Of a stretch of DNA of 64,000 nucleotides, positions 8,538-29,820 are shown in pieces (position 1 is the stretch's first letter; each line of letters begins with the position of its first letter). Under the pieces are notes generated by a model that saw only the letters and a program-made list of their open reading frames with translations, had not been told where the DNA came from and did not search any database. Origin of the DNA: an uncultured Gammaproteobacteria bacterium (GTDB lineage: Bacteria > Patescibacteriota > Patescibacteriia > JAHIZJ01); the NCBI GenBank assembly GCA_964594455.1, contig CAZQLY010000001.1, positions 133,989 through 197,988 on the forward strand, read 5' to 3'. The position numbers and the translations under genes are program-made.

Positions 8538-8602
8538 AACACCTCCTATTGATGGTTTATTGACAAATCTGCGTTTACAAAGAACAAAAAAGCACTGTAA
8601 TA

Positions 8603-8631
8603 ATTTATACATAAATCAGTAATATGTCAAA
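8603..8631 (-). promoter_or_regulatory. Sigma70-like promoter for hutU (minus strand: TTGACA, 17 nt, TAAATT)
   Basis: Reverse complement reads tttgacatattactgatttatgtataaatt, about 65 nt upstream of the hutU start. Confidence 0.45.
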
Positions 8632-14725: not shown

Positions 14726-17626
14726 ATGAAATCGGAATTATCCCAACAACTAAATCCAGAACAGAATCGGGCGGTCAAATTCGGGGACGGCCCATTATTA
14801 ATCGTGGCAGGCGCCGGGACCGGCAAAACCACAGTGATTACCCAGCGGTTGGCCTGGCTGATTGAGCAAAAAAAAGCTGCGCCGGACGAAATTTTGGCAC
14901 TGACATTTACCGACAAAGCAGCCGGAGAAATGGAAGAGCGAGTTGACCAGCTTCTGCCATACGGATACGTGGATCTTTGGGTGTCGACATTCCACGCTTT
15001 TGGTGAAAGGATTCTAAAAGACCATGCGTTGGATCTAGGCTTGGATCCGGGATTTAGAATCTTATCTACGCCGGATCAGTGGTTTATGATCCGGCAGAAT
15101 TTAGATAAATTTCAGCTTAGCTATTATAAACCTCTGGGCAACCCAACCCGTTTTATCTACGCTTTAGTCAAACACTTTTCGCGTTTAAAAGACGAGCACA
15201 TTGAACCGGATGAGTACGTAAAGTATGCCGAAAGACGGATCAAGAAAACCAAAGGCGGTTCGGAAGATGAGGTGGAAGAGGCAAAAAAGATTCTTGAGGT
15301 AGCCAAGGCTTTTCGGGTTTACCAAAACCTCCTGCATGAAAATGGCTGGCTGGATTTTGGCGATTTGGTTATATACACGCTGAAGCTTTTTAAAACTAGA
15401 AAAACCATTCTGGAAAAATACCGTCAGCAATTTAAATACGTATTAGTTGACGAATTCCAGGATACAAATTATGCCCAATACGAATTAGTCAAACTATTGG
15501 CCGGTACTAAACAAAACATTACTGTTTGCGGTGATGATGATCAATCAATTTATAAATTTCGGGGAGCGTCTGTTTCCAATATTTTGCAGTTCAAAAAAGA
15601 TTTCCCTAAAGCCCTGGAAGTCGTCTTGGTGCAAAATTATCGTAATGCTCAAAACACTTTGGATTTGTCTTATGATTTTATCCAGCTTAATAATCCTAAT
15701 AGATTAGAAGCACAGTTGGGCGATAGTGGAAAAGAGAAGTCGGGGCTGACAAAAAAGATCAGCAAAAAACTAAAGTCTAACAAAAAAGAACCAGCCGTTA
15801 TTGAACACATTCATTGTGAAACTATAGATAGGGAAGTGATGACGGTTCTAAAAAAGATAGTCGATTTGCAAAAAGCCAAGCAAGCCAGCTGGAGCGATTT
15901 TGCGATTTTGGTCAGGGCCAATGATATGGCTGACCCCTTTATTACGGCCTTAAGTGCTCAGGGTTTGCCATATCAGTTTATTGCTTCAAAAGGATTGTTC
16001 CAAAAACCCGAGATAATAGATTTAATATCTTATTTGAAACTGCTGGATAACTATCATGAGAGTTCGGCGCTTTATCGGATCCTCTCGTTGAAAACTTTTA
16101 ATATCCCAGTTGAAGATATCGTAAAACTTTTGCACTATTCCAGCCGTAAGAGTGTTTCTCTTTATGAAACATTACGTGAGGCTAGACTTTTGGGATTACA
16201 ACCAAAATCAAAAGACAAAATTGAAAAAATACAAAAGTTGATAGAACGACATACAGAATTAACGCGTACCAAATCAGTCGGCCAAGTGCTTTATCGTTTT
16301 GTGAAAGAGTCGGGCTATATTGAAAGGTTAACTAAGAAAGAAACGCTGGAGAACGCGGAAAAGATTTTGAATATCAATAAGTTTTTTACCAAGATAGCGG
16401 AATTCGAAAGCCGGAACGAAGACAAATCAGTCAAAAGTTTCATGGCTGAGCTGAATATCATGCTGGAAATAGGGCAAGATCCAGCGCCTACATCAATGCT
16501 GGAAGGACCAGAAGCTATAAAAATAATGACTATTCATTCGGCCAAAGGCCTGGAATTCCCTTACGTGTTTATTGCCAATTTGGTAGACAAAAGATTCCCC
16601 TCGATTGAACGGCGTGAACAAATAGAGATCCCTGAAGATATGATCAAGGAGATATTACCGACCGGCGATATTCATTTGCAGGAGGAGCGTCGGCTGTTTT
16701 ATGTGGCAGTAACTCGTGCCAAGTCAGGATTGTTTTTTACCACAGCTGACAACTATGGCGGATTGAGAAAGAAGAAGCTTTCTCGATTTCTCAAGGAAAT
16801 CAAATACGATCAGTATGTTAAACCGATGGGTATCAAAAAAGAGAAAGGGATTGATTATCCGGATGAGTTTGAAGGTGCGCGTAATAAACTTTTCAAATAT
16901 GAATTACCGCGCCAGCTCAGCTTTACCCAGCTAAAGGCTTTTTGGACCTGTCCGTATCAATACCGGTTCATGTTTGTTTTGAAGGTTCCGGGTGAGCCTA
17001 AACATACTTTTAGTTACGGCAAATCAATTCACAAAACATTAAGTGATTTCTTCCAGCTGGTTCAAAGAGGACAAAAGCACGACTGGCCAACTCTAAAAAG
17101 ATTATATGAATCAAACTGGATAGATGAATGGTACGAATCATCTGAGCATATGGCTGAACGAAAAGCTCAAGGTTTAAAAGCCCTCAAAGTATATTTTGAT
17201 TCTTTTGAGGGTAAGTTTCCTAAACCGCTTTATTTGGAGAAAGGTTTTGTTATTAAGATAAAAGGCAATTCTATCAAGGGATTTATTGACCGCATTGACG
17301 AGTTATCAGATGGCACGGTGGAAATTATCGATTATAAAACCGGTACCAAACCAAAATCAAAAAAGGTGGAAAACCCGGAACAGCTTTTAATTTATGCTAT
17401 GGCGGCTCGGGAAAGCATGAAAAAAGAACCCTCTAGCTTGTCGTATCATTATTTGGAGGGCAATGAGCAAGTAGCATTTAGCGCAACCGATCAAGCCATA
17501 GAAAAAGTTAAAGAAAAAATAGCCCAAACGGCCGAAGAGATGAAAACCAGTGATTTCCGGCCCACGCCTGGATTTCAATGCAAGTACTGTGATTTCAAAG
17601 ATATTTGTGAATATCGGCAGGTATAA
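14726..17626 (+). CDS. UvrD/PcrA-family helicase fused to a C-terminal Cas4/AddB-like PD-(D/E)xK nuclease with an Fe-S cysteine cluster
   Basis: Walker A AGAGTGKTT, DExx VDEFQDT, GDDDQSIY, helicase C-terminal TIHSAKGLEF; C-terminal GFIDRID...EIIDYKTG plus C..(CPYQY) and CKYCDFKDIC. Confidence 0.85.
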   Translation: MKSELSQQLNPEQNRAVKFGDGPLLIVAGAGTGKTTVITQRLAWLIEQKKAAPDEILALTFTDKAAGEMEERVDQLLPYGYVDLWVSTFHAFGERILKDHALDLGLDPGFRILSTPDQWFMIRQNLDKFQLSYYKPLGNPTRFIYALVKHFSRLKDEHIEPDEYVKYAERRIKKTKGGSEDEVEEAKKILEVAKAFRVYQNLLHENGWLDFGDLVIYTLKLFKTRKTILEKYRQQFKYVLVDEFQDTNYAQYELVKLLAGTKQNITVCGDDDQSIYKFRGASVSNILQFKKDFPKALEVVLVQNYRNAQNTLDLSYDFIQLNNPNRLEAQLGDSGKEKSGLTKKISKKLKSNKKEPAVIEHIHCETIDREVMTVLKKIVDLQKAKQASWSDFAILVRANDMADPFITALSAQGLPYQFIASKGLFQKPEIIDLISYLKLLDNYHESSALYRILSLKTFNIPVEDIVKLLHYSSRKSVSLYETLREARLLGLQPKSKDKIEKIQKLIERHTELTRTKSVGQVLYRFVKESGYIERLTKKETLENAEKILNINKFFTKIAEFESRNEDKSVKSFMAELNIMLEIGQDPAPTSMLEGPEAIKIMTIHSAKGLEFPYVFIANLVDKRFPSIERREQIEIPEDMIKEILPTGDIHLQEERRLFYVAVTRAKSGLFFTTADNYGGLRKKKLSRFLKEIKYDQYVKPMGIKKEKGIDYPDEFEGARNKLFKYELPRQLSFTQLKAFWTCPYQYRFMFVLKVPGEPKHTFSYGKSIHKTLSDFFQLVQRGQKHDWPTLKRLYESNWIDEWYESSEHMAERKAQGLKALKVYFDSFEGKFPKPLYLEKGFVIKIKGNSIKGFIDRIDELSDGTVEIIDYKTGTKPKSKKVENPEQLLIYAMAARESMKKEPSSLSYHYLEGNEQVAFSATDQAIEKVKEKIAQTAEEMKTSDFRPTPGFQCKYCDFKDICEYRQV

Positions 17627-17660
17627 AAAAACCCACCAAAAAGGCGGGTGAGGAAAGAGC
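17625..17660 (-). terminator. Terminator repeat A (minus-strand hairpin cacccgcc-ttttt-ggtgggt then U7)
   Basis: aaaaaaacccaccaaaaaggcgggtgaggaaagagc; near-identical copies at 18058 and 18563. Confidence 0.6.
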
Positions 17661-17662
17661 GG

Positions 17663-17968
17663 TCAGGTTGTCTGGCTGTTTCTGACATGGCTGGTAATGA
17701 TTTCAATTCGGGTAACGCTGCTTCTTTGTATGGTGCTTTTGACATGGAAGAAGCGCCTAAAACCATCGTGGACAAACCTGACAATCAATGAGTCATCAGC
17801 ACGATCCACAACTTGAGCAAAACCCTCCTTGCCAACTTCGATAAACTCGCGAATGCGCACTGACTGGATTGGTAATTCACGTCTTATTAGACGTTTTCTA
17901 TGGCGGCAGCCAATACGTAACTGCCGCAGCGATGTTATTGCAGCAGAACGGATCATTACTCCCTCCAT
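17663..17968 (-). CDS. Hypothetical small protein (GC-rich islet); coding status uncertain
   Basis: 101-aa ORF immediately upstream of terminator repeat A; an overlapping alternative 69-aa ORF exists. Confidence 0.3.
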   Translation of the reverse strand: MEGVMIRSAAITSLRQLRIGCRHRKRLIRRELPIQSVRIREFIEVGKEGFAQVVDRADDSLIVRFVHDGFRRFFHVKSTIQRSSVTRIEIITSHVRNSQTT

Positions 17969-18057
17969 ACAAGTTAAATGAGACAGGCCTTCCGTTTATC
18001 TGTTATGAAATTAGTGTGTATTATCTATTTTGTCAAGGGTATATTTACTAGTTTTAT

Positions 18058-18093
18058 AAAAAAACCCACCAAAATGGCGGGTGAGGGAAAGAT
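18058..18093 (-). terminator. Terminator repeat B
   Basis: aaaaaaacccaccaaaatggcgggtgagggaaagatc, directly 3' of the 18094 gene stop. Confidence 0.6.
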
Positions 18094-18486
18094 CTAGGTG
18101 TGCTGACCGATCAGGTCAGCGAAGATTTGGCGTGGGAGTGCCGGCTCTTTTAGGATTAAAGAAGGAACAACACTCTCAGTTTGGACATCAGGGGTGACGT
18201 AGTCAGTCCAAGATGTGCCAGGATGAAACTTGGGCGAGTCGATATGCGTGTTCGTTAGAAGAAATACGGCGCCATTCAACTCCAGCCCCTCGAGATTAGC
18301 TATCTGCGCTAAAGCCAGATAGACTAATCGATTCCAATCTGAGGGAGTAACATTAAAAAATTCCACCGCTAGTACAAACAGCGGTTTCTCTCCCGTCTGA
18401 TGGTCTGGTTTGTAATAGCGGAAAGTGCAGTCAGTAACTCCATCGGTTACTTGGACGGTGCAAATGGATTGATTTATGCGGCCCAT
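18094..18486 (-). CDS. Hypothetical protein (GC-rich islet)
   Basis: Start MGRINQ with GAGGAGGTG SD; possible weak similarity to the 27908..28180 protein (shared TPSD and KFHP motifs). Confidence 0.45.
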   Translation of the reverse strand: MGRINQSICTVQVTDGVTDCTFRYYKPDHQTGEKPLFVLAVEFFNVTPSDWNRLVYLALAQIANLEGLELNGAVFLLTNTHIDSPKFHPGTSWTDYVTPDVQTESVVPSLILKEPALPRQIFADLIGQHT

Positions 18487-18562
18487 GAACACCTCCTCGG
18501 TGGAAAGAACAACGGATACTACCAAGGTAATTTATCAGGTTGGCTGAAGAAGTCAAATGTTT

Positions 18563-18597
18563 AAAAAAAGACCCACCAATTGGTAGGTCAGAAAGGG
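18563..18597 (-). terminator. Terminator repeat C (diverged copy)
   Basis: aaaaaaagacccaccaattggtaggtcagaaaggg; the minus-strand RNA forms an 8-bp stem including one G-U pair, then a U-run. Confidence 0.55.
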
Positions 18598-20394
18598 CTA
18601 CGAAGAAAGAATGCCGAGCCAGATCAGCAAGGCAACAATCATACCCATGAGAGATGAGCCAGCGATGCCTGAAGCACCAATCGTGTACTGGTATTCGCCG
18701 GTGAAGCGCCTGTGAATCCAGTTCATGATCAGGTAGATAAACGAGCCGAGCCAGATCGCGCTGGAGTAGAAGAAGGGGATGATCATGGCTACACCTATAC
18801 CGACTGGGCTGGGCACCCATCTACGGAAACGTGTCTGCTCCAGTGTTGTCAGGAAGACTCCGGCCAGGCTTGCCCAAAGCATGGCCAAACCAGCTTTGGC
18901 CGGCAAAGCACTCCAACCTTCAGAGAAGAACTCAGCCAGCGTCGCGAAACGGACTGCGCCTGGAGCTGGCATGATGTCGCCCCCCATCTCGTAAGTGTTG
19001 AAGACTAGCATCAGCATCGGGACAGCAGCCAACGCTCCGACAATGATACCAATAAATTGGGCCGTAACCTGTTTCCGAGGAGTTGCTCCGACCAGCCAAC
19101 CGGTCTTCAGATCCTGCATCATGTCACCTGCTTCTCCAGCACCCGCGCCGGCCACACCCGCCATGGTCAGGTTTGCCGTGACGTTGTTCGGGCTGATGCC
19201 GCCGAAAATGAGTTGGGTCATGGATGCGAATGCCGAAATCGGATTGACTTCGGTTTGTCCGATGCACCGGACAGCGATTGCGGCCATGAACATGCTGAGA
19301 ATGATAGCCAGTAGGGTCATGAACGGATTAATGCCAAAGCCAAGCCATATGACCAGGATGCAGAGAAGTGACGAGCCCAGGAGCCCCCAGAGCCAGCTAC
19401 GGAAAGATGTCTTGAGGTCGCCGCCGACTCCGATCTGGCGCATGCTTCTGAGACTCTCCATGATGATCCGGAATTTGATAAGTATCTGGGTTAAACCCGC
19501 AGAAATCATGATCATTACCCCAGGCCAGACAGTCCAAGCAACGATCGGACGGAACAGCAAACCTTGTCCAGGATCCTGGACCAAACCATTCGCGATCAAC
19601 CAGGGGCCGAGTATCGGAAAAGCGATAATCGCTCCGATCAACAGCGACCAGCCGATCCGCGGACCGATCAGGAAACCGGCGCCGATCAGAAGAGGATCCC
19701 AGGCCACACCGACAGTCAGCCGAGTGAGAGACTGAGTGGCCACACTGCCACCCATCAACCAGAGAGCCGACAGCTTGTGAAAGCCTTCCTGCAGAAGCTT
19801 GACCAACCCGGAGACAGCGACCAGTATGCCCAGCATCCAGCCATGTCCAGCCGAACCGGTTTCCTGGTTATGAAAGGTGTCCATCATATAAGCGCAGGCT
19901 GTCCCCGAAGGAAACCTGAGCTTTTCTTCAATGACCACTTGTCGTCTCAGCGGAATGGCAAAATAGATGCCAAGCAAGCTAGTACTGCCAATAAACAGCA
20001 GAATCTGACACCAGCTCATAGCTTGGCTAATTACTCCGGAAGCTGCCAAGATGACGAACGCTGGCACGACATTGACTATGTTGCCGATACTACCGGCCGC
20101 TGATCCCACCGTCTGGGTGATGTTGTTTTCCAGGATTGAGTAGCGGGCCCGGAACATACGGAATAGCACCAGGCCGAAGATTGCGGCAATAATGGAGCCT
20201 CCTTCTCCAAAGCAAGTCTTCAAGCCCATGTAAATGTTGACTGCGACCAGCAGTATTCCGATGAAAATACCGGCTAAGACTGCCTTGAGAGTAAGCTCGG
20301 GTTTGCCATACCCTTGGTACACATTATAGTACCAGTGCTCTTCATCCCAGCAATCGGGAGGAAGATGCCATGGATCAGACGGTCGAAGCGACAT
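18598..20394 (-). CDS. OPT-family oligopeptide transporter (GC-rich islet)
   Basis: About 15 TM helices; OPT-like N-terminus (YQGYGKPELTLKAVLAGIFIGILL...GLKTCFGEGGSIIAAI); AGGGGG SD. Confidence 0.7.
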   Translation of the reverse strand: MSLRPSDPWHLPPDCWDEEHWYYNVYQGYGKPELTLKAVLAGIFIGILLVAVNIYMGLKTCFGEGGSIIAAIFGLVLFRMFRARYSILENNITQTVGSAAGSIGNIVNVVPAFVILAASGVISQAMSWCQILLFIGSTSLLGIYFAIPLRRQVVIEEKLRFPSGTACAYMMDTFHNQETGSAGHGWMLGILVAVSGLVKLLQEGFHKLSALWLMGGSVATQSLTRLTVGVAWDPLLIGAGFLIGPRIGWSLLIGAIIAFPILGPWLIANGLVQDPGQGLLFRPIVAWTVWPGVMIMISAGLTQILIKFRIIMESLRSMRQIGVGGDLKTSFRSWLWGLLGSSLLCILVIWLGFGINPFMTLLAIILSMFMAAIAVRCIGQTEVNPISAFASMTQLIFGGISPNNVTANLTMAGVAGAGAGEAGDMMQDLKTGWLVGATPRKQVTAQFIGIIVGALAAVPMLMLVFNTYEMGGDIMPAPGAVRFATLAEFFSEGWSALPAKAGLAMLWASLAGVFLTTLEQTRFRRWVPSPVGIGVAMIIPFFYSSAIWLGSFIYLIMNWIHRRFTGEYQYTIGASGIAGSSLMGMIVALLIWLGILSS

Positions 20395-20562
20395 TGATAC
20401 CCCCTTTGTATTGGGAACCGACGTTACGGTAAATGACCAACAGAGTTTTCAAAGAACCTTGAAATCTTAGTTACTTTTTTTATACCTAGTCAAGAGAAAA
20501 AGGGTCTATTATTTTGTAAAATATAAATATCGATGTATCATTAAGGTATAAATACTAATCTA

Positions 20563-20988
20563 GTGATTATGAACCCAGAAAAACCCACAAATTCGGAAGA
20601 ACTTGGTGAAAAAAAACTAGAGAAATCGCCAGAAATACTGACTGAACTGTGGACTTCGTTTGACCTGGAAGAGCAAGTCTTAGCCAAAGCAATCCTGGAT
20701 GGGCGTCCGCCAGATGAAGATGCAGCTGTTATTGAGAGCGATTTGCCTCCTAATAACGCGGCAGATCTATTAGATGTAAATTTGATTGATGGAGCCTCAG
20801 TATTGAGCAGATATATAACAAGAGGCAAGGGGACAGAAGTAGTAGTTGATAAAGGCAAACCGTCAATTGTTATTGATGACACAAATTGGCGTGAGCACGG
20901 GCCGAGAGGCAAATGGCTCAGGAAATGGATCCCGATTGCCGAATCTCTGTATCAAAAAGTCGAAGCGTTTAAATCAAAGGGATTATAA
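20563..20988 (+). CDS. Hypothetical protein
   Basis: 141 aa, acidic N-terminal half; no motif recognised. Confidence 0.5.
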   Translation: MIMNPEKPTNSEELGEKKLEKSPEILTELWTSFDLEEQVLAKAILDGRPPDEDAAVIESDLPPNNAADLLDVNLIDGASVLSRYITRGKGTEVVVDKGKPSIVIDDTNWREHGPRGKWLRKWIPIAESLYQKVEAFKSKGL

Positions 20989-21010
20989 TTAGTAGTATTA
21001 AACACGAGCC

Positions 21011-21039
21011 TTGACAGAAAGAGTTGGACATGTTATCAT
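21011..21039 (+). promoter_or_regulatory. Sigma70-like promoter (TTGACA, 17 nt, TATCAT) driving a non-coding transcript
   Basis: ttgacagaaagagttggacatgttatcat; no ORF follows for about 230 nt. Confidence 0.5.
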
Positions 21040-21045
21040 GCCCTA

Positions 21046-21266
21046 TCAAGTATTAGCTGGTTCTGGCTGAGCTTCAGAAAGTCATACAGACACACATGGT
21101 AATATGGTGTTGCGAGGATTATTTAGGCAGAACCAGGCAGTATCAGTTTTTCCGTGTTGAGTTTGATAACGCTAGGATAACCTACCCAAACCATTGAGAG
21201 GTAATTCGGAATTCAGGCGTCGCTCGTCCGAAGTAAATTGGAACCCTTGAACAGAGGGTTTTTTGA
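21046..21266 (+). ncRNA. Candidate structured sRNA or cis-regulatory leader (about 220 nt) running from the promoter to an intrinsic terminator
   Basis: ORF-free interval bounded by a consensus promoter and a hairpin plus T-run; internal long-range complementarity (ctggttctggc with gccagaaccag about 60 nt apart) and several local hairpins. Class not identified. Confidence 0.4.
21242..21266 (+). terminator. Rho-independent terminator (aaccct/agggtt stem then T5)
   Basis: aacccttgaacagagggttttttg, immediately upstream of the ywbE-like gene. Confidence 0.65.
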
Positions 21267-21319
21267 TTTGATTCAAATTAGAAATTAGCTATTCCTTGTT
21301 ATTTTTTAGGATTTGGCGT

Positions 21320-21526
21320 ATGATAAGCTATATGGATGGAAACAGTAGAGATAGCATATTTCCTGGCTTACGAGTAGCTGTGGTAAAAAAAATGGATCAG
21401 GCAACCGGACAGCTGACAGAAGGAATAGTCCGGGATGTTTTAACACATTCAGCTAGCCATCCACACGGTATTAAGGTTAGGCTGGAATCTGGCGAAGTAG
21501 GTAGAGTTAAGGATATTTTGAACTAA
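21320..21526 (+). CDS. YwbE-family small protein (DUF2196)
   Basis: MDGNSRDSIFPGLRVAVVKKMDQATGQLTEGIVRDVLTHSASHPHGIKVRLESGEVGRVKDI aligns along its length with B. subtilis YwbE (HPHGIKVRL..G.VGRV). Start at 21320 or 21332. Confidence 0.7.
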   Translation: MISYMDGNSRDSIFPGLRVAVVKKMDQATGQLTEGIVRDVLTHSASHPHGIKVRLESGEVGRVKDILN

Positions 21527-21554
21527 CTTTTTAAATAACTAAATATAGAAAAAT

Positions 21555-22127
21555 ATGTTTGATAAAAAAGAGATGTTCAAGGCAGTGTGTGGTGAATGTA
21601 ATAAACCATGTGAAGTACCATTTAAGCCAACCGGAGATAAACCTGTGTTGTGCAGCGACTGCTTTGCTCAAAAAAAAGACAGATTTCATAGCCGAACCGG
21701 CGCCGGTCGTTCGGCCAGATCTAGGGATAGGCACATGCATGAAGCTATTTGTGATAAATGTGGTAAGAAATGCCAGGTACCTTTCAAGCCTACTGGAGAA
21801 AAACCAATATTCTGTAGTGATTGTTTCAGTACAGAAGATAGACGAAGCGACAGGAGAGGTGATAGACGAGGCAGAGACCGGTATGGTAGAGGCAGCACTA
21901 AGAGTAGGGATGAAGTTGGAAGCAGACAGTTGTCAGAGCAATTAAAATCAGTCAGCCTTAAGGTAGACAAGGTATTGGAATTATTGGAGAGAGAAGAGAC
22001 TGAGAAACAATCTTCTACAAAAACTATCGGTAAAAAAGCTAGTATAAAAAAAGCAGGAGCCAAAACTAAAACAGCCAAGAATTCCACAAAAAAAGCAGCA
22101 AAGAAAACACCTAAGAAAAAGAAATAA
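21555..22127 (+). CDS. Nucleic-acid-binding-type protein: two tandem C4 zinc ribbons, an RG/RD-rich linker and a lysine-rich tail
   Basis: Duplicated C..C-x4-VPFKPTG-KP--C-DCF motif; RRSDRRGDRRGRDRYGRG low-complexity region; C-terminal KKAAKKTPKKKK tail. Confidence 0.55.
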   Translation: MFDKKEMFKAVCGECNKPCEVPFKPTGDKPVLCSDCFAQKKDRFHSRTGAGRSARSRDRHMHEAICDKCGKKCQVPFKPTGEKPIFCSDCFSTEDRRSDRRGDRRGRDRYGRGSTKSRDEVGSRQLSEQLKSVSLKVDKVLELLEREETEKQSSTKTIGKKASIKKAGAKTKTAKNSTKKAAKKTPKKKK

Positions 22128-22155
22128 ATCGTTAGATAAATACTCAGATAAACCA

Positions 22156-22704
22156 ATGAATAATCGTCAAAAGCAAACCCCATTACACCCAAAGCTAAAA
22201 GCCAATTATCAGGCTGAGATAAGTTTGTCTTTTGACAAAATTAATTATTCAGATATTTCTGATAAGGCCAAGCGGGAGGGATTCAAAAGAAATAAAGATT
22301 TCCATATTACAGTAATCGGAATAATTGCTGCTAAGGCAATAAAGAGTTGTTTAACGAAACTTGATCAGACAAAACGAAAAAAAATGCTGGAAAAAATACA
22401 GGAATTGTTAAAATCGTTTAACTGGTCGTTTAAGCTTTCCCAGCGTTATCACGTCAAGAAGAATGGGAAGTTTAATGAAAAAAATGACATTATAGAAAAT
22501 CGTGAGTCATATATTCAGATATTGTACCTTCCGGCTATGGAGAGATTCTATAGCAAGTTAAATGGCTTGATGGGTCTAGAGCTGGACACACAAATTTCTC
22601 ACGTTACTCTATTTACAAAAGGTGAAAGTAAAAATCCAGACTATTATGGCATACCCATACCGTCAAAAGAAGAATTCGATAATATGGATCCACAGGAAAT
22701 CTGA
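22156..22704 (+). CDS. 2H phosphoesterase superfamily protein (LigT / cyclic phosphodiesterase-like)
   Basis: Two H-x-T-x motifs in the expected spacing (FHITVIG and SHVTLFT). Confidence 0.5.
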   Translation: MNNRQKQTPLHPKLKANYQAEISLSFDKINYSDISDKAKREGFKRNKDFHITVIGIIAAKAIKSCLTKLDQTKRKKMLEKIQELLKSFNWSFKLSQRYHVKKNGKFNEKNDIIENRESYIQILYLPAMERFYSKLNGLMGLELDTQISHVTLFTKGESKNPDYYGIPIPSKEEFDNMDPQEI

Positions 22705-22734
22705 GCTGAAAACAACTATTTCAATTATCGTACT

Positions 22735-22758
22735 GGCAGTGCTTTAGCGCTGTTTTTA
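22735..22758 (+). terminator. Rho-independent terminator after the 2H phosphoesterase gene
   Basis: ggcagtgc-ttta-gcgctg then ttttta. Confidence 0.55.
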
Positions 22759-22861
22759 TATTGACAATTAAAGGAAATAGTAATAAATTCAGGAGCTGAG
22801 GAAATGAGAGCCCATTACATAAACTTGGCTGAATACAGCCGATATCTAGGAGGTAAACACC

Positions 22862-23959
22862 ATGAAGACTATGAGTATTTTTCTGTGTCTTCTGGTGGTC
22901 GCATTCAGCGCTTCGGCTGAAACGATCCGAGTGCCGGATCAGTATGCGACCATCCAGGCGGCTGTCGAGTCCGCACAACCCGGTGACGAAGTCCAAGTGG
23001 CGGCTGGAACGTACAACGACTGCACTCATCAATCAGTCAATGAGGCGGGCGCTGAGATGATGAACTGCGTAATAATGAAGAGCGGTGTCTCGCTGATCGG
23101 CGCTGGTTCCGAGAGTACCATCATTGATGCTCAAGGACTGGGTCGGGTCATCTTGGCTGATTCTTGTGCAGCCGGAACCAGGATCGAAGGCTTCACCCTG
23201 ACTGGAGGACACCTGGAAGGGAGTAAAAACGGTGCTGGTTTGAACTGCTACTGGTCGGCGGTTGAGTGCTCTGACCTGACCTTTGTTGAGAATGGAACAG
23301 AGGGTAATGGCGGCGGAGTCTCCATCTTCATGGGTGCGAATCGAATGACTGACTGTTTCTTCAACGGTAACTATGTTTTGATCGGATACGGAGGTGCTAT
23401 CCACTGTGTCAGTTCAAGCAGCGAGTTTGAGCGGTGCCGTGTTACTGGAAGCAGCGGCTACAACGGTACAGTGGTCTGTGACCAGAGTGATGGAGCTCCG
23501 ACTTTCAAATACTGCCTCTTTGATCACAACCAGAGTCACCGCGGTGTGGTCTGGACCGGCAATGAGAGCCAAGCCAGATTCGAACACTGTACTATTTCCG
23601 ACAGCGAAGGAGAGTCATTCTATACTAATTCCGAAGGGGCATCGCTATATTGCTGCATATTGGCATTCGGTAGTAGAGTGGCAATGATCTGTGACGAGGG
23701 TACAACATTTGAGTGCTGTGATGTCTACGGACATCAGTACAATGACACGAATAAAGGCACCGACCTCGGCGGATGTTTTTCTGAAGATCCCGAGTTTGTC
23801 AGCCGGGAGTCCGGGGACTACTACCTTCAGCCCAGCTCTCCATGCCAGCCCGGCAACCACTCTGGCGGCTGCAACGACGTTGTGATCGGCGCGTTTCCGC
23901 CCGATGACACGCCTGTCCAGAGATGTTCCTGGGGCATGATCAAGGCGTCATTTCGATAA
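22862..23959 (+). CDS. Secreted right-handed beta-helix (pectin-lyase-fold) protein with a Cys-rich C-terminus (GC-rich islet)
   Basis: Signal peptide ...AFSASA; Gly/Asn/Thr-rich repeats typical of parallel beta-helix; AGGAGGT SD. Confidence 0.55.
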   Translation: MKTMSIFLCLLVVAFSASAETIRVPDQYATIQAAVESAQPGDEVQVAAGTYNDCTHQSVNEAGAEMMNCVIMKSGVSLIGAGSESTIIDAQGLGRVILADSCAAGTRIEGFTLTGGHLEGSKNGAGLNCYWSAVECSDLTFVENGTEGNGGGVSIFMGANRMTDCFFNGNYVLIGYGGAIHCVSSSSEFERCRVTGSSGYNGTVVCDQSDGAPTFKYCLFDHNQSHRGVVWTGNESQARFEHCTISDSEGESFYTNSEGASLYCCILAFGSRVAMICDEGTTFECCDVYGHQYNDTNKGTDLGGCFSEDPEFVSRESGDYYLQPSSPCQPGNHSGGCNDVVIGAFPPDDTPVQRCSWGMIKASFR

Positions 23960-23970
23960 TGAACATTCAT

Positions 23971-23996
23971 GAGGTAACTACGGTTACCTCTTTTTT
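23971..23996 (+). terminator. Rho-independent terminator
   Basis: gaggtaac-tacg-gttacctc then tttttt. Confidence 0.7.
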
Positions 23997-24035
23997 ATGC
24001 TTGAAAAAAGAGTTATTAATGATTAAACTATTATT

Positions 24036-24977
24036 ATGGATAAAGCGAAGGTTGAAATAATGCGCAAAGAGATATTGAATCGACCAGACGTTGGGTCAAT
24101 TAAAATTTTTGATACATTCAAAAATGAGTCTGGCCGCAAAGACGTTATATTGATAAAACAAAATAACCAAAAAAAGATAGTCCGAATTGGCGAAGCCAGA
24201 CCGGATTATTTTTTTTCAGATGGGTATCAAGGCGAATATCTGGTAATACCCAAAATATATGAGATTAACAAACAGGAAATCGTTTATGAAATAGAAGAGT
24301 ATCTTGAGGGGCCTACGCTTTGGAAAAAGCTTGGGCGGAGTAACAGCTTTTTTTTACCAGAAGACCTGTGGGATTTATTGTTTTCAGCCTTTTGGGAATT
24401 TCAATCAGTAGCCAAAGAATTACCCTTTGAACAAAAGATGACGATAGAAAAAGTGATAAAGCATTTTGATAAGGCAAAAGAGTTAATCCCTGATCAGAAA
24501 GAAACACTATCGTTGATTAAAAAACTGGAGTCGAAGTGGAATTCCAGCTATCCGTCCAAGTGGAAGTTTGCCTTGGACAATCTGATCTATATCAAAGATA
24601 AAAAAATCGGTTTCATAGACAATGATAATGTAGGTAGCAGGTTCCTGGGTTATGACCTGGGCTGGGTTATCTGGCCTGGTTGGGTGCATATGAGAACAAA
24701 GGACTATCGGAACAGGTTTGATCAATACATTAAATACTTGAAAAGTATTGAGAAGAGATTTGCTAGATCCTGTCCTAGTAACCTAGACTTAGATGAAAAA
24801 TTATCCGATGCTTTTTGGCTGGCAATATTTGAGCGTATTATCGGAGCATTGTATGATGTAGTTAATCAAACTAAGCATTTGGCGCCTGCTAGGATTATAA
24901 AAAACAGTGTCAAAGAAAAAGAACACACAAACTTCCTTGTGCGATTGTTAAAAGTCGTTAGTGATAGATTAGAATGA
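24036..24977 (+). CDS. Hypothetical protein, possibly phosphotransferase (APH/choline-kinase fold)-like
   Basis: IGFIDNDNVGSRFLGYDLGWVIW resembles the APH catalytic loop and D...DLG region; weak. Confidence 0.35.
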   Translation: MDKAKVEIMRKEILNRPDVGSIKIFDTFKNESGRKDVILIKQNNQKKIVRIGEARPDYFFSDGYQGEYLVIPKIYEINKQEIVYEIEEYLEGPTLWKKLGRSNSFFLPEDLWDLLFSAFWEFQSVAKELPFEQKMTIEKVIKHFDKAKELIPDQKETLSLIKKLESKWNSSYPSKWKFALDNLIYIKDKKIGFIDNDNVGSRFLGYDLGWVIWPGWVHMRTKDYRNRFDQYIKYLKSIEKRFARSCPSNLDLDEKLSDAFWLAIFERIIGALYDVVNQTKHLAPARIIKNSVKEKEHTNFLVRLLKVVSDRLE

Positions 24978-25124
24978 TCTAGCATGAAAATAAAACTTTT
25001 TAGAAAAAGGTTTATTAGTTAATATCAGATAAATATTAGATATCTTGAAAAAAAATTAAGCTGGTAGTAAGATAATCCCAGTTCATTTGTAATTCGACTA
25101 GGGTACGAAAATAAGGGAGGAGAC

Positions 25125-25889
25125 ATGAAGAGGTTGAATGTTTTGTTATGGGTGATGCTGGCGGGGTTACTACTGGTGTCGTGCGGAGGTGATTCTGTCT
25201 CGAGCTGGACCAGGGCAATGTCCCAAGAAAACGCCGGCGAACACGAGAAGGCTTTGGCCAGAGCAACCAAGCTGGTTGAAGCTCGAATTGCACACATGGA
25301 CGGCGCTCTAGCGTCGAACTTGACCACCAGCCGGTATTTTGACCCTGAACGAGCGGCTGAGGACATCCTGAAGCTGAGCCGGAAGATCCACGACAACGAC
25401 GATTTGGCCAACAGTTTGGCTGCTCGAGGATTCCTCTTCTGCGTCATCGGCGAGTACAATCTGGGCGTTGCGGACTTTGAGCAGGCAATGAAAGCTGGAG
25501 AAGAGCCGGACTTGATGATGCTGGAGCCGCTGACTTCCGGAACCCTACACTTCTGTCATGCCATGGCACTCTGGCAGAAGGGAGAAAAGTCGCAAGCTCT
25601 GTCTGAACTAGAGTCCCTGACAGAGAAGGACGAGAAGTGCCACCAGGCCTGGTTTTATCAGGGAGTGATCAGAGATGAGTTGGGACAGCGTATTGATGCG
25701 ATCGGCAATATACAGTACGCTACTTATCTGAAATCAAGTCCTGTCTACAGCAATACCTTTGATTACTTGATGGGGAAGAGGACGGGCGAAGTGCCGTATT
25801 GCTCATTCCTGATTGCCTTTTTCAGCAACCGAGAACCGCTCAACCGGCCCTATGGCTACATCTGGCCCCTAGTCCAAGATACCAAATAA
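25125..25889 (+). CDS. Lipoprotein with TPR-like repeats (GC-rich islet)
   Basis: Lipobox LLLVSCGG; GGGAGGAG SD; helical repeat composition. Confidence 0.5.
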   Translation: MKRLNVLLWVMLAGLLLVSCGGDSVSSWTRAMSQENAGEHEKALARATKLVEARIAHMDGALASNLTTSRYFDPERAAEDILKLSRKIHDNDDLANSLAARGFLFCVIGEYNLGVADFEQAMKAGEEPDLMMLEPLTSGTLHFCHAMALWQKGEKSQALSELESLTEKDEKCHQAWFYQGVIRDELGQRIDAIGNIQYATYLKSSPVYSNTFDYLMGKRTGEVPYCSFLIAFFSNREPLNRPYGYIWPLVQDTK

Positions 25890-25899
25890 ACCTTCGAAC

Positions 25900-25926
25900 A
25901 GGCGTTTCCGTAAACGCCTTTTTTAT
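25900..25926 (+). terminator. Rho-independent terminator
   Basis: aggcgttt-ccgt-aaacgcct then tttttatt. Confidence 0.7.
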
Positions 25927-26050
25927 TCTTGAAGTAGTGTAAATTAAACCTTTTGGTAAAAAGGTTTACTCCTTTCATATAAGTCAATTTTTATGTTGAA
26001 TAGATAGGGGATAAGGAGTATGATAAAAATACAAATAATTAATTGATCTC

Positions 26051-27160
26051 ATGAAAAATTTCATTACCACAACGCTAATCATTCTCTTAGTAATCGTTGG
26101 CGGGTATATTGCTTATGATAAGATTTATAATGAAAGGGAGGGAAATGCTGGGCATGAATCTAAGTCATATGATCAGCTGGGCTTCTTAATTGGACCTTCG
26201 GCAAAAGAAATGAAGGAAGCGAGAGAATTAGGCGCCGGCTGGGTTCGGCCACACCCAGGCCCTTTTGTCTGGGGTGATATGCAGAAGACCGCTGAGAGCA
26301 AGATTTCTTTTTCTGAAACAGATGATATTGTCGAAGACTCTAAGGATTATGATATACAGTTGCTGGTTACTATTTGGCCTTATGCTGGCTGGGATCAGAA
26401 AGAACGTTCTGATTATGACGATTGTCGAGTGTCTGGAAGCGAATTTGTCGATGAGTTTGGCTGGTATCGTTGCAATCCAAATAATTGGGATACATATCAA
26501 GAATGGGTTTCGGCTTTTGTCGAACGTTATGATGGAGATGGGGTCGAAGATATGCCTGGAATGCAGCAGGCAATCAAATACTGGGAGGTATTTAATGAAC
26601 CGGATTTGCAGCAGATGGCAGGAGAAAGCGGGCTACAGTTCTTTGTAGGAGATCCTGATGATTACGCGGAATTACTTAAAAAGACCAGCCAGGCCATAAG
26701 ATCAGCTGATCCAGAAGCAAAAATATTAGTAGCCGGAGCAGCTGGCGGTGATGCGGATATGCTGGAATTCTATCGAGGAGTTTTTGACGACCAGAGCGCG
26801 ATCAACAGTTTTGATATAGCTAATGTGCATTGCATTTCCAGTGGAGACGTAGAAAGTTTTAATGTCGAACCGTATAGGGAAATGCTTGATGAATTTGGAA
26901 TTGATAAACCTATCTGGGTGACCGAAGCCGAGGCATTTATAAGTTCGGATCCAGCCGTGGTGGCAACTCAAACCAAGGAAAGCTCCTTGGAAGCTTTTGA
27001 ATTAGGAGCAGAGAAGTTATTTTATACTAGTCGAGATTTTGAACACCAGCCAGGTGGTGGTATGATGAAGATGGATGAAACAGACACGATGGTTGACACT
27101 AGCCTAGATGTATCTGATCCGGGTAGTATATTTAGAGAGATATGTGAATCAAATGGTTAA
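26051..27160 (+). CDS. Membrane-anchored glycoside hydrolase, GH5 (clan GH-A)-like
   Basis: N-terminal TM; IKYWEVFNEPD matches the GH5 acid/base NEP signature; candidate nucleophile in IWVTEAE. Confidence 0.45.
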   Translation: MKNFITTTLIILLVIVGGYIAYDKIYNEREGNAGHESKSYDQLGFLIGPSAKEMKEARELGAGWVRPHPGPFVWGDMQKTAESKISFSETDDIVEDSKDYDIQLLVTIWPYAGWDQKERSDYDDCRVSGSEFVDEFGWYRCNPNNWDTYQEWVSAFVERYDGDGVEDMPGMQQAIKYWEVFNEPDLQQMAGESGLQFFVGDPDDYAELLKKTSQAIRSADPEAKILVAGAAGGDADMLEFYRGVFDDQSAINSFDIANVHCISSGDVESFNVEPYREMLDEFGIDKPIWVTEAEAFISSDPAVVATQTKESSLEAFELGAEKLFYTSRDFEHQPGGGMMKMDETDTMVDTSLDVSDPGSIFREICESNG

Positions 27161-27193
27161 AATAAAGGCAAGTTAATTATTAATTAAAATTTT

Positions 27194-27778
27194 ATGAACA
27201 AAAGTTTAATTGGCATTATCGTGGCCGTGATAATCATTGGTAGCGGTGTAGGTATTTATTTCTATATGCAAAATGATGAGGAAGCTTCCACAGACAACAC
27301 CAACACCAACGCTGTAGCTGAAACAAAGTATGAGGGAGATTCCTATTCTTTTACTCAGCCGGACGGTTGGACTCAAGGACACATCCAGAACACGTTGGTA
27401 TCGTTTCATAATACCGAGGAAACTTTTCCTGAAGGTAGCGCGGCAGCCAACATAAATTTCAAAAGTTATATGGCTTTGTCGTTTGACAGCATCAATGAAC
27501 GATCCCTATCTGAGATATATGATTTGACTGTTGCCGGTTTACAGCAAACACTTCCTTCAATTACGGTTGTTGATGTAGTTGATGAAACAATTAATGGCCT
27601 TCCAGCTAAACTTCTGACAATCCAATTTGTTCAACAGGAAGTTGATTATACGGTGCTAATAGGCATGTACATGGCAAGCCAGCGGTATTATGCCATGTCA
27701 TTTAATACTACGACTGAAAAATGGTCAGAGTACAAAGACTACTTCTTCAAACTAGCTAGAAGTTTCGAGGCGGAATAA
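27194..27778 (+). CDS. Membrane-anchored or secreted hypothetical protein
   Basis: N-terminal TM; no motif recognised. Confidence 0.5.
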   Translation: MNKSLIGIIVAVIIIGSGVGIYFYMQNDEEASTDNTNTNAVAETKYEGDSYSFTQPDGWTQGHIQNTLVSFHNTEETFPEGSAAANINFKSYMALSFDSINERSLSEIYDLTVAGLQQTLPSITVVDVVDETINGLPAKLLTIQFVQQEVDYTVLIGMYMASQRYYAMSFNTTTEKWSEYKDYFFKLARSFEAE

Positions 27779-27796
27779 ATCACAGTTATAGCTATT

Positions 27797-27831
27797 AAAA
27801 AACCCGTGTTCAGGGCAATGCGGGTTTTTTA
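27797..27831. terminator. Bidirectional hairpin terminator (A-run, hairpin, T-run)
   Basis: aaaaaacccgtgttcagggcaatgcgggtttttt. Confidence 0.55.
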
Positions 27832-27907
27832 TTGTGTCATATTCATTAAAAAGCGAAAGACCCAGCGGCTGGTGCTGGGTCACGTGTGCGAAGAGCGAGG
27901 TTGGAAG

Positions 27908-28180
27908 TCAAATTACGGCTCTTTGCACCAAGGTTGTACTGATGGTACGAGGACTGATGTGCTGGGTTAGAACTGGAGTTTCGACAGATAACCCCTTAGG
28001 ATCGGAAGAAACTTGGATGTTGCAGCAGGGATCAACCCTGTGGTGAACTATCACATCACATAATACTGCGTCATCCGATGGAGTTAGTCTAAGATAGACG
28101 ACGATCATGTCATCCTCGTAGATGATGGGGGTATTTTTATTCCCGTGCATCCAGTCAACAGGATGAAACTTCGCGGACAT
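27908..28180 (-). CDS. Hypothetical small protein (GC-rich islet)
   Basis: Start MSAKFHP with GGAGGTG SD; four Cys. Confidence 0.4.
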   Translation of the reverse strand: MSAKFHPVDWMHGNKNTPIIYEDDMIVVYLRLTPSDDAVLCDVIVHHRVDPCCNIQVSSDPKGLSVETPVLTQHISPRTISTTLVQRAVI

Positions 28181-28405
28181 CTGACACCTCCAGTACTTCT
28201 GAGGTTTATTGAGAAACAATGAACGACCATGCGTAATAGCATGGATTATTCATGTTGTCAATAGTTACCTTATTTTAGCCAAAAAGATATCCCCAGCTAC
28301 TCTGCCTATAAGTTTGAAAAATGGGCGATTTTGTGTTAGAATTTGAGTAGAAAATATACGCTTTTCTAGCGAAAATCAAACAAAAGTTTGTAAAACTTTT
28401 AAGAT

Positions 28406-28789
28406 ATGTCATTGAGAAAATTTTTATTGTTTATGACCGCTGTAACAGTGATTTGCTGGATCGGCTGGATCACTGTGTTGTTTTATATAGACCCTGATTC
28501 CGCCGGATTTATTGGCTTATTCCTATTTTATATCAGTCTGTTTTTTGCTGTTATCGGATCTTTTTCGCTACTTGGATTCTTTTTTCGGGTTTGGTTTTCA
28601 AAAGAAGAGGTTGTTTTTCATCATGTGGGAATAGCCTTTAGGCAGGCCCTGCTGTTTTCTTTGCTGCTGGTCGGTTCATTGATTCTTCAAGGCATGCGTA
28701 TTTTAACTTGGTGGAATGCTGCATTGTTCGTGATTTGTTTAGCTGTGCTGGAATTATTTTTCTTAACTAGAAAGAAGAGCTACTCATGA
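28406..28789 (+). CDS. Membrane protein (4 TM), hypothetical
   Basis: Hydrophobic profile; overlaps the pheS start by 4 nt. Confidence 0.5.
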   Translation: MSLRKFLLFMTAVTVICWIGWITVLFYIDPDSAGFIGLFLFYISLFFAVIGSFSLLGFFFRVWFSKEEVVFHHVGIAFRQALLFSLLLVGSLILQGMRILTWWNAALFVICLAVLELFFLTRKKSYS

Positions 28790-29820
28790 GAGAAAAGATA
28801 GAAAAAATTCACCAACAAGCCAAAGCTGATTTGGGAGAAGTAACCAGCGAAAGCGATATCCAGAATCTGCGCAATAAATATTTGGGCCGTAAGGCTGAGT
28901 TGACTCGTTTACTGCGAGATGTCAAACAGCTGCCTCCTGAGGAGAGACCGCAGATGGGTCAGCTGGCCAATCGTCTTCGTAGCGAGATTGAAGAAGCATT
29001 AGCCGGCAAGAAGTTTGATCAAAGCGGCCTGGTAGGAAATATCGATATCACTTTGCCCGGCAAAAGGCTGCCGGTCGGACATTACCATCCTTTGACTCGC
29101 TTTTTACGAAAAGTTAAGAAAGTATTTAGTTCAATGGGATTTGAGATAGTTGATGGGCCGGAAGTGGAAACAGCAGAAAATAACTTTGATCTGCTAAATA
29201 TTCCCAAGGACCACCCAGCCAGAGATATGTGGGACACTTTTTATGTTAATAGAGGCAAAGGGATTAATCGGGGTAAAAGCACTGGATCACAATTGCTTCT
29301 GAGAACGCATACTTCACCCGGGCAAATTCGGGCAATGGCGAATCGAAAACCACCGGTTAGAATAATAGTTCCGGGTCGAGTATTCCGTCACGAGGCTACA
29401 GACGCTTCCCACGAAGCTCAGTTTTGCCAGTGTGAAGGCTTGGTTATAGATAAAGATGTAGCAGTAACTGATTTGATAGGTACGCTCAAAGCTTTTTTGA
29501 ATGAGATGTTTGGTGAAGACGTTAAGATCAGAATTCGTCCGGAATTTTATCCTTTTGTTGAACCGGGCATGGATATAGATATGAGTTGTATTTTGTGCAG
29601 CGGTAAGGGCTGTTCGGTATGTAGTCAGCGCGGCTGGTTGGAAATGCTTGGTTCAGGCATGGTTCACCCAACAGTTTTGAAGAATATGAAAGTTGATCCC
29701 AAGCAATACAGCGGCTTTGCTTTTGGGCTTGGCATAGACAGGCTGATGATGCTTTATTACGGTGTGCAGGATGTCCGGCTGTCCTATTCAAATGATTTAC
29801 GATTTTTAAAACAGTTTTAA
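28786..29820 (+). CDS. pheS: Phenylalanine--tRNA ligase alpha subunit
   Basis: Class II aaRS motifs: FRHEATDASHEAQFCQCEG and GFAFGLGIDRLMMLYYGVQDVR. Confidence 0.92.
   Translation: MREKIEKIHQQAKADLGEVTSESDIQNLRNKYLGRKAELTRLLRDVKQLPPEERPQMGQLANRLRSEIEEALAGKKFDQSGLVGNIDITLPGKRLPVGHYHPLTRFLRKVKKVFSSMGFEIVDGPEVETAENNFDLLNIPKDHPARDMWDTFYVNRGKGINRGKSTGSQLLLRTHTSPGQIRAMANRKPPVRIIVPGRVFRHEATDASHEAQFCQCEGLVIDKDVAVTDLIGTLKAFLNEMFGEDVKIRIRPEFYPFVEPGMDIDMSCILCSGKGCSVCSQRGWLEMLGSGMVHPTVLKNMKVDPKQYSGFAFGLGIDRLMMLYYGVQDVRLSYSNDLRFLKQF

Follow-up and report, generated by a model that had tools for sequence, protein, structure and literature searches.

The question raised by this locus is whether a stretch of about 220 nucleotides without a substantial open reading frame (ORF), lying just upstream of a small operon, is the regulatory leader of that operon or a gene in its own right. 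The stretch belongs to a 64,000-nucleotide segment (the window: positions 133,989 to 197,988 of contig CAZQLY010000001.1) from a member of the Patescibacteriota; the best relatives of the window's proteins are throughout 'Patescibacteria group bacterium' metagenome-assembled genomes. A first-pass annotation had described the interval as a promoter-to-terminator non-coding RNA with the layout of a riboswitch or attenuator leader, controlling three genes: ywbE, a gene for a protein with two zinc ribbons (ZnR) and a gene for a 2H phosphoesterase (2H). From comparison with related genomes we consider it likely that the interval 21046-21268 (+) is not the leader of ywbE-ZnR-2H but a small RNA gene that stands on its own, in a narrow clade of the Patescibacteria. 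Its elements are the following.

21011-21039 (+): promoter of the RNA gene, with the -35 box TTGACA at 21011-21016, a 17-nt spacer containing TG at 21031-21032, and the -10 box TATCAT at 21034-21039.
21046-21268 (+): predicted primary transcript of ~223 nt (the match to covariance model R1 covers 21046-21271).
21050-21143 (+): domain 1, a long irregular hairpin (RNAalifold consensus).
21076-21088 (+): 13-nt asymmetric internal loop AGAAAGUCAUACA, opposite a 2-nt GC; consensus AGAAAGUYAUACA.
21144-21240 (+): domain 2, a second long hairpin (RNAalifold consensus).
21240-21268 (+): intrinsic terminator of the RNA gene, with a stem at 21240-21262 (GGAACCCTTGAACAGAGGGTTTT) and a U-tract to 21268.

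Both signals were found by sequence scan. The promoter, which carries a TG extension, matches the consensus at 11 of 12 positions and is the top-scoring site in 20400-23000. Since nine promoter-like sites were observed in the scanned region against 6.1 expected, the pair of promoter and terminator is not convincing on its own. What places the RNA gene beyond chance is that three other genomes have kept the two signals together with all of the sequence they enclose, whereas the flanks cannot be aligned. Homologues were sought at the loci that encode relatives of the neighbouring proteins and by one exact-word scan of metagenome contigs, and those found lie in other Patescibacteria assemblies:

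L084/L085, 2997-3220: RNA homologue in two assemblies, identical in sequence.
L222, 5444-5672: RNA homologue from an 18-mer scan of metagenome contigs.
L243, 9978-10206: RNA homologue found with covariance model R1 (179.5 bits).

With the window copy these make four distinct sequences, at 70-82% pairwise identity. The copies become alignable at the -35 box and cease to be so after the terminator U-tract; the DNA on either side cannot be aligned. All four retain the promoter as TTGACA, a 17-nt spacer, TGn and TA(T/G/A)CAT, and all four retain the terminator stem with six U residues, only the loop bases varying. Promoter and terminator are thus conserved together with the RNA body while the flanking genes diverge, which is the pattern that marks a stand-alone small RNA (sRNA). 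The promoter-to-terminator RNA proposed by the first-pass annotation is in this respect borne out.

The interval does not appear to encode a protein. Its longest ORFs are 33 aa on the plus strand and 34 aa on the minus strand, the insertions and deletions among the copies are of 1, 2 and 4 nt and so not multiples of three, and no ORF on either strand is common to the four copies. Two candidate small proteins were rejected: the 33-aa plus-strand ORF has no start in the homologues, and a minus-strand ORF beginning 'MIW...' ranges in length from 16 to 50 aa with a broken frame.

The RNAalifold consensus of the window, L084 and L222 copies consists of two long irregular hairpins followed by the terminator. 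Domain 1 includes helices P1 (GUAUU/AGUAU), P2 (CUGGUUCU/AGAACCAG), P4 (CUUC/GAGG) and P5 (GACAC/GUGUU, with a variable tip); P2, P3, P5 and the tip helix all show compensatory changes. Its 13-nt internal loop is the best-conserved element of the RNA: it sits within a 22-nt block that is invariant in the window, L084 and L222, and L243 reads AGAAAGUUAUACA, a single C-to-U change. Domain 2 is closed by a base helix (CAGUUUUUC/GAAGUAAAUUG), followed by GAGU/(A/G)CUC (GCUC in the window), a covarying ACGC/GCGU helix and two covarying distal helices, and ends in a conserved apical loop, CCCAAAYCAU. In alignment A7, 10 of the 11 pairs of the base helix (helix 8) never vary; compensatory changes are seen at four pairs of helix 10 and at one of helix 11. 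The many invariant G-U pairs of the consensus identify the plus strand as the transcribed, functional strand.

In the three-sequence alignment 94.4% of cells are paired and there are 11 compensatory pairs, compared with 35-46% and 0-1 in slid controls, in which the 3' partners are shifted by 1-3 columns. Covariance model R1 was built from these three sequences only, so that L243 serves as an independent fourth. When it is added, 94.9% of cells are paired with 12 compensatory pairs (34-46% and 0-3 in six slid controls), and the observed pairing and compensation values are attained by 0-1 of 500 shuffles. The conservation and covariation that the leader hypothesis had called for in relatives are therefore found, although, as discussed below, not in the service of a leader. 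Taken together, the conservation, the covariation and the absence of a shared ORF identify the interval as a genuine non-coding RNA, structured and ~223 nt in length.

Several observations weigh against this reading or temper it. The thermodynamic stability of the transcript is unremarkable, with a folding z-score of -1.5 for the whole RNA, and hence the case for structure rests on the comparative data and not on thermodynamics; domain 2 has a z-score of about 0, no better than shuffled sequences. (Domain 1 gives -4.1 in the window and -1.3, -0.6 and -2.0 in the homologues.) The four-sequence alignment was fitted with the covariance model and is hence biased towards the structure of that model; when MAFFT and RNAalifold were run unguided on the same four sequences, P2-P3 came out misaligned and domain 1 was recovered only in part. 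All four sequences come from fairly close relatives, and the covariation counts are small and phylogenetically correlated. Finally, a same-strand gene starts 30-120 nt past the terminator in three of the four genomes, so that effects of read-through on it are possible.

This last point leads to the relation between the RNA and the genes that follow it, which in the window are arranged as follows.

21296-21324 (+): promoter-like site for ywbE, TTGTTA-17-TATGAT (9 of 12 matches), ending 7 nt before the ATG.
21332-21526 (+): ywbE (DUF2196), 64 aa; Pfam PF09962, E 2.2e-28, 98.4 bits against a cut-off of 25.
21555-22127 (+): ZnR, a 190-aa CxxC-x17-CxxC protein (zf_Tbcl_2 twice); Pfam PF23477 in two stretches, E 8.5e-33, 112 bits against a cut-off of 27.
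22156-22704 (+): divergent 2H-like (2H-SAK-like) protein, 182 aa, with HITV at residues 50-53 and HVTL at residues 149-152.
22735-22762 (+): terminator-like hairpin closing the ywbE-ZnR-2H unit (hairpin 22735-22754), 8 pairs followed by TTTATATT.

The ywbE ATG lies ~64 nt past the U-tract of the RNA, further than the 20-50 nt first given, and the space between holds a promoter-like site whose geometry recurs in the other lineages with ywbE-ZnR. The regions compared are:

Window, 21296-21334: ywbE promoter and start, as listed above.
L082, 3035-3075: ywbE promoter and start, TTGTAA-17-TATGAT-7-ATG.
L222, 5672-5705: ywbE promoter and start, TTGATT-17-TACGAT-6-ATG.
L238, 3740-3780: ywbE promoter and start, TTGAAA-17-TAGGAT-6-ATG.

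In none of the four lineages is ywbE preceded by a Shine-Dalgarno sequence, and ZnR and 2H also have no obvious one. Because the arrangement of -35 box, 17-nt spacer, -10 box, 6-7 nt and ATG is conserved in four lineages, the ywbE(-ZnR) mRNA appears to be leaderless, or nearly so, and made from its own putative promoter.

It has been proposed that the RNA is a cis-acting leader, that is, a riboswitch or protein-dependent attenuator whose terminator gates transcription into ywbE-ZnR-2H. The arrangement in the window invites this: ywbE follows closely on the same strand both here and in L222, in L243, too, a gene on the same strand lies 120 nt downstream, and the terminator stem is modest (three G-C pairs), which makes some read-through plausible. 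The genes found 3' of the four copies are nevertheless unrelated, namely ywbE in the window and L222, a NUDIX hydrolase gene in L243 and a 91-aa ORF on the opposite strand in L084, where a 2H-like gene lies ~780 nt downstream, beyond that ORF. Conversely, ywbE-ZnR operons occur without the RNA in L082 and L238, where the covariance model finds nothing in either locus; the gap upstream of ywbE is ~200 nt in L082, taken up by the terminator of another gene and the ywbE promoter, and just ~100 nt in L238. One assembly, GCA_016294925.1 (L082 and L243), has both the RNA and the ywbE-ZnR-2H trio, on different contigs. Neither the RNA nor ZnR nor 2H was detected (blastn, nhmmer, tblastn and covariance model) near any of 80 YwbE loci on GTDB contigs, one genome per species, from many phyla and including five Patescibacteria. 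In all four ywbE lineages the conserved -35/-10 pair stands between the upstream DNA or terminator and the ATG. Within the RNA, the last position of the domain 2 base helix is 21240 and the first of the terminator is 21240/21241, so that on inspection of the consensus the two abut without overlapping, and by that inspection alone no conserved alternative pairing for the 5' arm of the terminator was seen. Since the downstream genes differ, ywbE-ZnR occurs without the RNA and ywbE has its own promoter, comparative sequence evidence indicates that the RNA is not the 5' leader of ywbE-ZnR-2H; we regard a cis-acting role as improbable, and the riboswitch or attenuator layout of the first-pass annotation is not upheld.

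An RNA with a near-consensus, conserved promoter might be expressed constitutively at a high level, as would suit a housekeeping RNA (6S, signal recognition particle (SRP)/4.5S, RNase P, transfer-messenger RNA (tmRNA) or Y RNA) so divergent in this clade that the Rfam models miss it. The block AGAAAGUC...ACAGAC moreover has what we take to be a superficial likeness to the CR-I/CR-V strings of RNase P. Rfam 15 gives zero matches at gathering score in the whole window, so that the RNA could not be assigned to a known family in this way, and when run at E ≤10 with permissive filters on 20900-21400 (500 nt) it returns two chance matches to eukaryotic snoRNAs (15-17 bits against gathering scores of 40-70) and nothing else. 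No Rfam match was obtained for the homologues in L084, L222 and L243 either; at E ≤10, none of 6S (RF00013 on the interval), SRP, RNase P, tmRNA or Y RNA is matched in 20900-21400 or in the three homologues, and ARAGORN found no tmRNA. The two independent hairpins show no 6S-type bubble rod, no P4-type pseudoknot and no GNRA-capped domain IV, and L239, which shares the helicase-pheS synteny described below, has no copy of the RNA at that site, although a universal RNA ought to be indispensable (one could lie elsewhere). With no weak Rfam match, an unfitting fold and a relative whose syntenic site is empty, a housekeeping RNA is very improbable. More serious, if still unlikely, is a trans-acting base-pairing sRNA with the invariant 13-nt loop, or the CCCAAAYCAU apical loop, as its seed. 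The strongest conservation does fall in a stretch predicted to be unpaired, and a stand-alone promoter and terminator are typical of sRNAs; on the other hand, the window holds no complementary site at ≤3 mismatches (for the 13-nt loop, no second copy or complement at ≤2 mismatches), and a long, almost fully helical RNA with sequence-invariant helices is atypical of seed-type sRNAs.

For the free-standing RNA gene, the following sequence of events is proposed. Transcription would start from the gene's own strong extended -10 promoter and end at its own intrinsic terminator; the transcript would fold into the two long irregular hairpin domains, with the asymmetric loop AGAAAGUYAUACA as its most conserved part; ywbE-ZnR-2H would be transcribed separately, from the promoter abutting the ywbE start codon; and the RNA would act in trans. 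Its architecture leads us to favour, tentatively and with less than even confidence, an RNA bound by protein as a scaffold, a sponge or the subunit of a ribonucleoprotein. Nearly all of this long RNA is helical; sequence is invariant over entire helices and in internal loops, and not in a single exposed seed; and conservation is highest in a large asymmetric internal loop. Such loops are the usual kind of protein-recognition site. Candidate partners, by proximity only, are the basic zinc-finger protein, YwbE and a DEAD-box helicase. A more specific version, which we put forward as a long shot, would make the RNA the dedicated subunit of a small ribonucleoprotein of this clade, its 13-nt loop bound by the CxxC-x17-CxxC/RGG protein and/or YwbE, and the RNA itself remodelled or end-processed by the recurring DEAD-box helicase, NUDIX or 2H-like enzymes. 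If true, this would give a first function to two very widespread uncharacterised families, DUF2196 and CxxC-x17-CxxC.

Why the RNA and ywbE are neighbours at all is suggested by the wider gene order. A UvrD/PD-(D/E)XK helicase gene at 14726-17626 encodes a protein that shares 77% identity with the helicase preceding the RNA in L084, and in L243 the RNA begins 107 nt after the orthologous helicase. Next after the helicase, at a distance of 0.2-1.3 kb in the relatives L239 and L243, come a small ORF, pheS, two small ORFs, pheT and gyrB. These genes are present in the window as well, from 28406 on, starting with a 127-aa ORF and then pheS (28786-29820); between the helicase and these genes lies an island of ~10.8 kb (17627-28405), compared with 0.2-1.3 kb in L239 and L243. 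Besides the RNA and ywbE-ZnR-2H, the island contains GC-rich genes for an OPT transporter and a beta-helix protein, and others. L239, a relative at 70% identity, has neither insert nor RNA at the helicase-pheS site. Because the RNA keeps its place downstream of the helicase, inside a variable island, its linkage to ywbE looks like inherited synteny. Any two of the three elements co-occur in some genome: RNA-ywbE-ZnR in L222, ywbE-ZnR-2H in L082, and the RNA with 2H further on in L084. Since the genomes concerned are all closely related, common descent followed by differential loss would explain the co-occurrence as well as functional coupling does.

Two other genes of the island differ from their surroundings in composition: an OPT oligopeptide transporter gene at 18598-20394 (-) and a gene for a secreted right-handed beta-helix protein at 22862-23959 (+). 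Because these segments have ~49-55% GC in a genome of mostly ~40%, both genes were likely acquired recently by horizontal transfer. A urocanase gene at 6492-8612 (-) is also GC-rich (50-55%).

The scans for further copies of the RNA gave one homologue and a number of chance matches. The metagenome 18-mer scan returned 20 matches, among which L222 is the only true homologue. Viral contigs gave 0 matches with a 19-mer; with a 14-mer there were at least 120 random matches, and one of them, in L211 (nhmmer E 0.012), is taken as chance because it falls within a 707-aa tail-fibre-like ORF. Three GC-rich metagenome contigs (L220 1-106, L223 1-106 and L226 95-265, minus strand) share the exact 18-mer UCAGAAAGUCAUACAGAC; a short GGUC/GACC hairpin and CCCAAACCA come after it, and together these echo two conserved elements of the RNA. 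The contigs are not counted as homologues, the covariance-model score of 12.9 bits (E 1.5) not being significant, and the resemblance is probably due to chance.

The first-pass assignments of the YwbE and double zinc-ribbon proteins were confirmed by Pfam matches well above the cut-offs listed above. YwbE is 63-78% identical to homologues across many phyla; no solved structure of a homologue was found, and a single-sequence AF2 model has a mean confidence (pLDDT) of 53, too low for use. The ZnR family is large (>1300 homologues) and mostly patescibacterial. Read from the translation, the window protein has the C4 pattern in both domains, an RG/RD linker and a lysine-rich tail. Zinc binding has been shown for Methanosarcina homologues of the CxxC-x17-CxxC domain (PMC12704099). 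The two genes are adjacent, with a spacing of 28-31 nt, in four lineages (window, L082, L222 and L238), and the comparison indicates that ywbE-ZnR is a conserved dicistron with a putative promoter abutting its start codon. The larger ywbE-ZnR-2H trio does not generalise in the same way and is no conserved module: it is present in the window and in one close relative (L082), and in L222 and L238 ywbE-ZnR stands without 2H. Genes of the zf_Tbcl_2 family repeatedly adjoin DEAD-box and/or PIF1-type helicase genes (L233/L234/L235 1364-4552, L236 4001-6037, L238 4001-5819, L222 3964-6543). This recurrence hints that the widespread CxxC-x17-CxxC family may work with nucleic-acid helicases.

The product of the third gene probably belongs to the 2H phosphoesterase superfamily, judging from its sequence motifs and from weak profile and fold matches. 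Across 18 homologues H50, H149 and T151 do not vary, and T52 is conserved to at least 90%. In the AF2 model, which has a pLDDT of 91, both HxT motifs lie on predicted beta-strands. A Foldseek search with this model gives weak matches (TM-scores 0.3-0.46) that are mostly 2H enzymes: MHV ns2, CPDase, phage phosphodiesterases, Acb1, LigT and '2'-5' RNA ligase'. No curated model supports the assignment above its threshold: Pfam 2H-SAK (PF22547) scores the window protein at E 0.014 and 16 bits, below the cut-off of 27, and weakly matches 14 of the 18 homologues (best E 2e-4), all below the cut-off. A profile search of the family against PDB sequences gave no 2H match, and hhalign against a LigT-like protein was not significant (probability 0.6%), aligning the first HxT motif only. 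The 17 close homologues all come from Patescibacteria or unnamed metagenome contigs, and a profile search extends the family to ~520 representative clusters. Compared with the 2H superfamily as described (LigT/ThpR, CPDase, viral ns2/Acb1 and PF22547), the protein is alike in having two H-x-T-x motifs on beta-strands in the two halves of an alpha+beta protein of ~180 aa; it differs in that every member tested falls below the Pfam gathering score, and it forms a family of its own.

The neighbours of 2H-like genes differ from lineage to lineage and are unrelated in L083, L084, L086, L089 and L091. An apparent pattern of a 245-aa protein, a gap and 2H (L083, L086 and L089) was dismissed as coincidence, the three proteins being mutually unrelated. 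The 2H-like domain is also found fused to a PRK/uridine-kinase-like P-loop kinase (P0304) and to a methyltransferase (P0308), as well as in P0292 and in a very large protein, P0288 (2781 aa). The pairing of a kinase with a 2H domain recalls the healing domains of tRNA ligases. In L091/L092 (4543-6709) a more distant 2H-like homologue starts 6 nt after a HIT/DcpS_C-like gene; next come a gene for a 23S_rRNA_IVP four-helix bundle and one of the canonical LigT/2'-5' RNA ligase-like kind, and NUDIX and DUF3800 genes lie nearby. This context, seemingly one of nucleotide or RNA-end metabolism, fits the 2H assignment. On the Patescibacteria contig L089 (917-5603) a major-vault-protein homologue (Pfam MVP_shoulder, Vault_3) is encoded two genes upstream of 2H-like. 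Upstream of that 2H gene, a gap of 467 nt contains a promoter-like site (TTGACA-17-TAATAT) and, ~310 nt from it, a T-run. The gap gives no Rfam match, shows no similarity to the window RNA, and may be another, unrelated non-coding RNA. In L082, the closest relative, a heliorhodopsin gene (7711-8400) lies ~3 kb downstream of the ywbE-ZnR-2H trio. L082 (5352-5951) and the window (27194-27778) each have a PsbP-like gene after 2H.

To our knowledge, very few non-coding RNAs have been described in the candidate phyla radiation (CPR) besides rRNA, tRNA, RNase P, SRP and tmRNA. A search of the literature on DUF2196/YwbE, on non-coding RNAs of the CPR and on 6S RNA in the CPR found nothing relevant. 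In such tiny genomes a conserved, structured RNA of 220 nt with a near-consensus promoter is unlikely to be idle, and the present one would be a rare non-housekeeping structured RNA of the CPR, within the limit set by its narrow distribution. The family is concretely defined, by its alignment and covariance model as well as by its secondary structure and invariant loop, and is suited to catalogues of RNA motifs. The analysis also removes a tempting reading, that of a riboswitch controlling an RNA-repair operon, and its side results (the ywbE-ZnR dicistron, the CxxC-x17-CxxC/helicase neighbourhoods and the 2H-like family) may aid annotation.

How, then, does the RNA compare with known systems? 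With riboswitch and attenuator leaders it shares a structured, terminator-ended transcript and, in two of the four genomes, a ywbE gene directly after it on the same strand; it differs from them in that its downstream genes are inconsistent and the putative target operon has its own promoter and occurs without it. 6S RNA is a single rod formed from paired 5' and 3' ends with a large central bubble, whereas the window RNA consists of two separate hairpins. Repeated GGA loops of the CsrB kind were considered and rejected: the window copy has four GGA, which on inspection are not kept in L084. As to bacterial Y RNAs, no Ro/Rsr or RtcB gene was noticed among the annotated genes of the window and the loci, no dedicated search for them having been made. 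The RNA has no sequence or structure match to any of the protein-binding sRNAs (6S RNA, CsrB/RsmZ, bacterial Y RNAs) in Rfam 15. It is nonetheless like them in several respects, having its own promoter, a Rho-independent terminator, a length of ~200 nt, a largely helical fold and conserved untranslated internal loops, and adjoining genes of an RNA-metabolism type (DEAD-box helicase, NUDIX, 2H-like and basic zinc-finger) in different genomes. On the comparative evidence, the RNA represents a new family within a familiar class, the stand-alone bacterial sRNAs; the members known to date come from four genomes of a single CPR clade.

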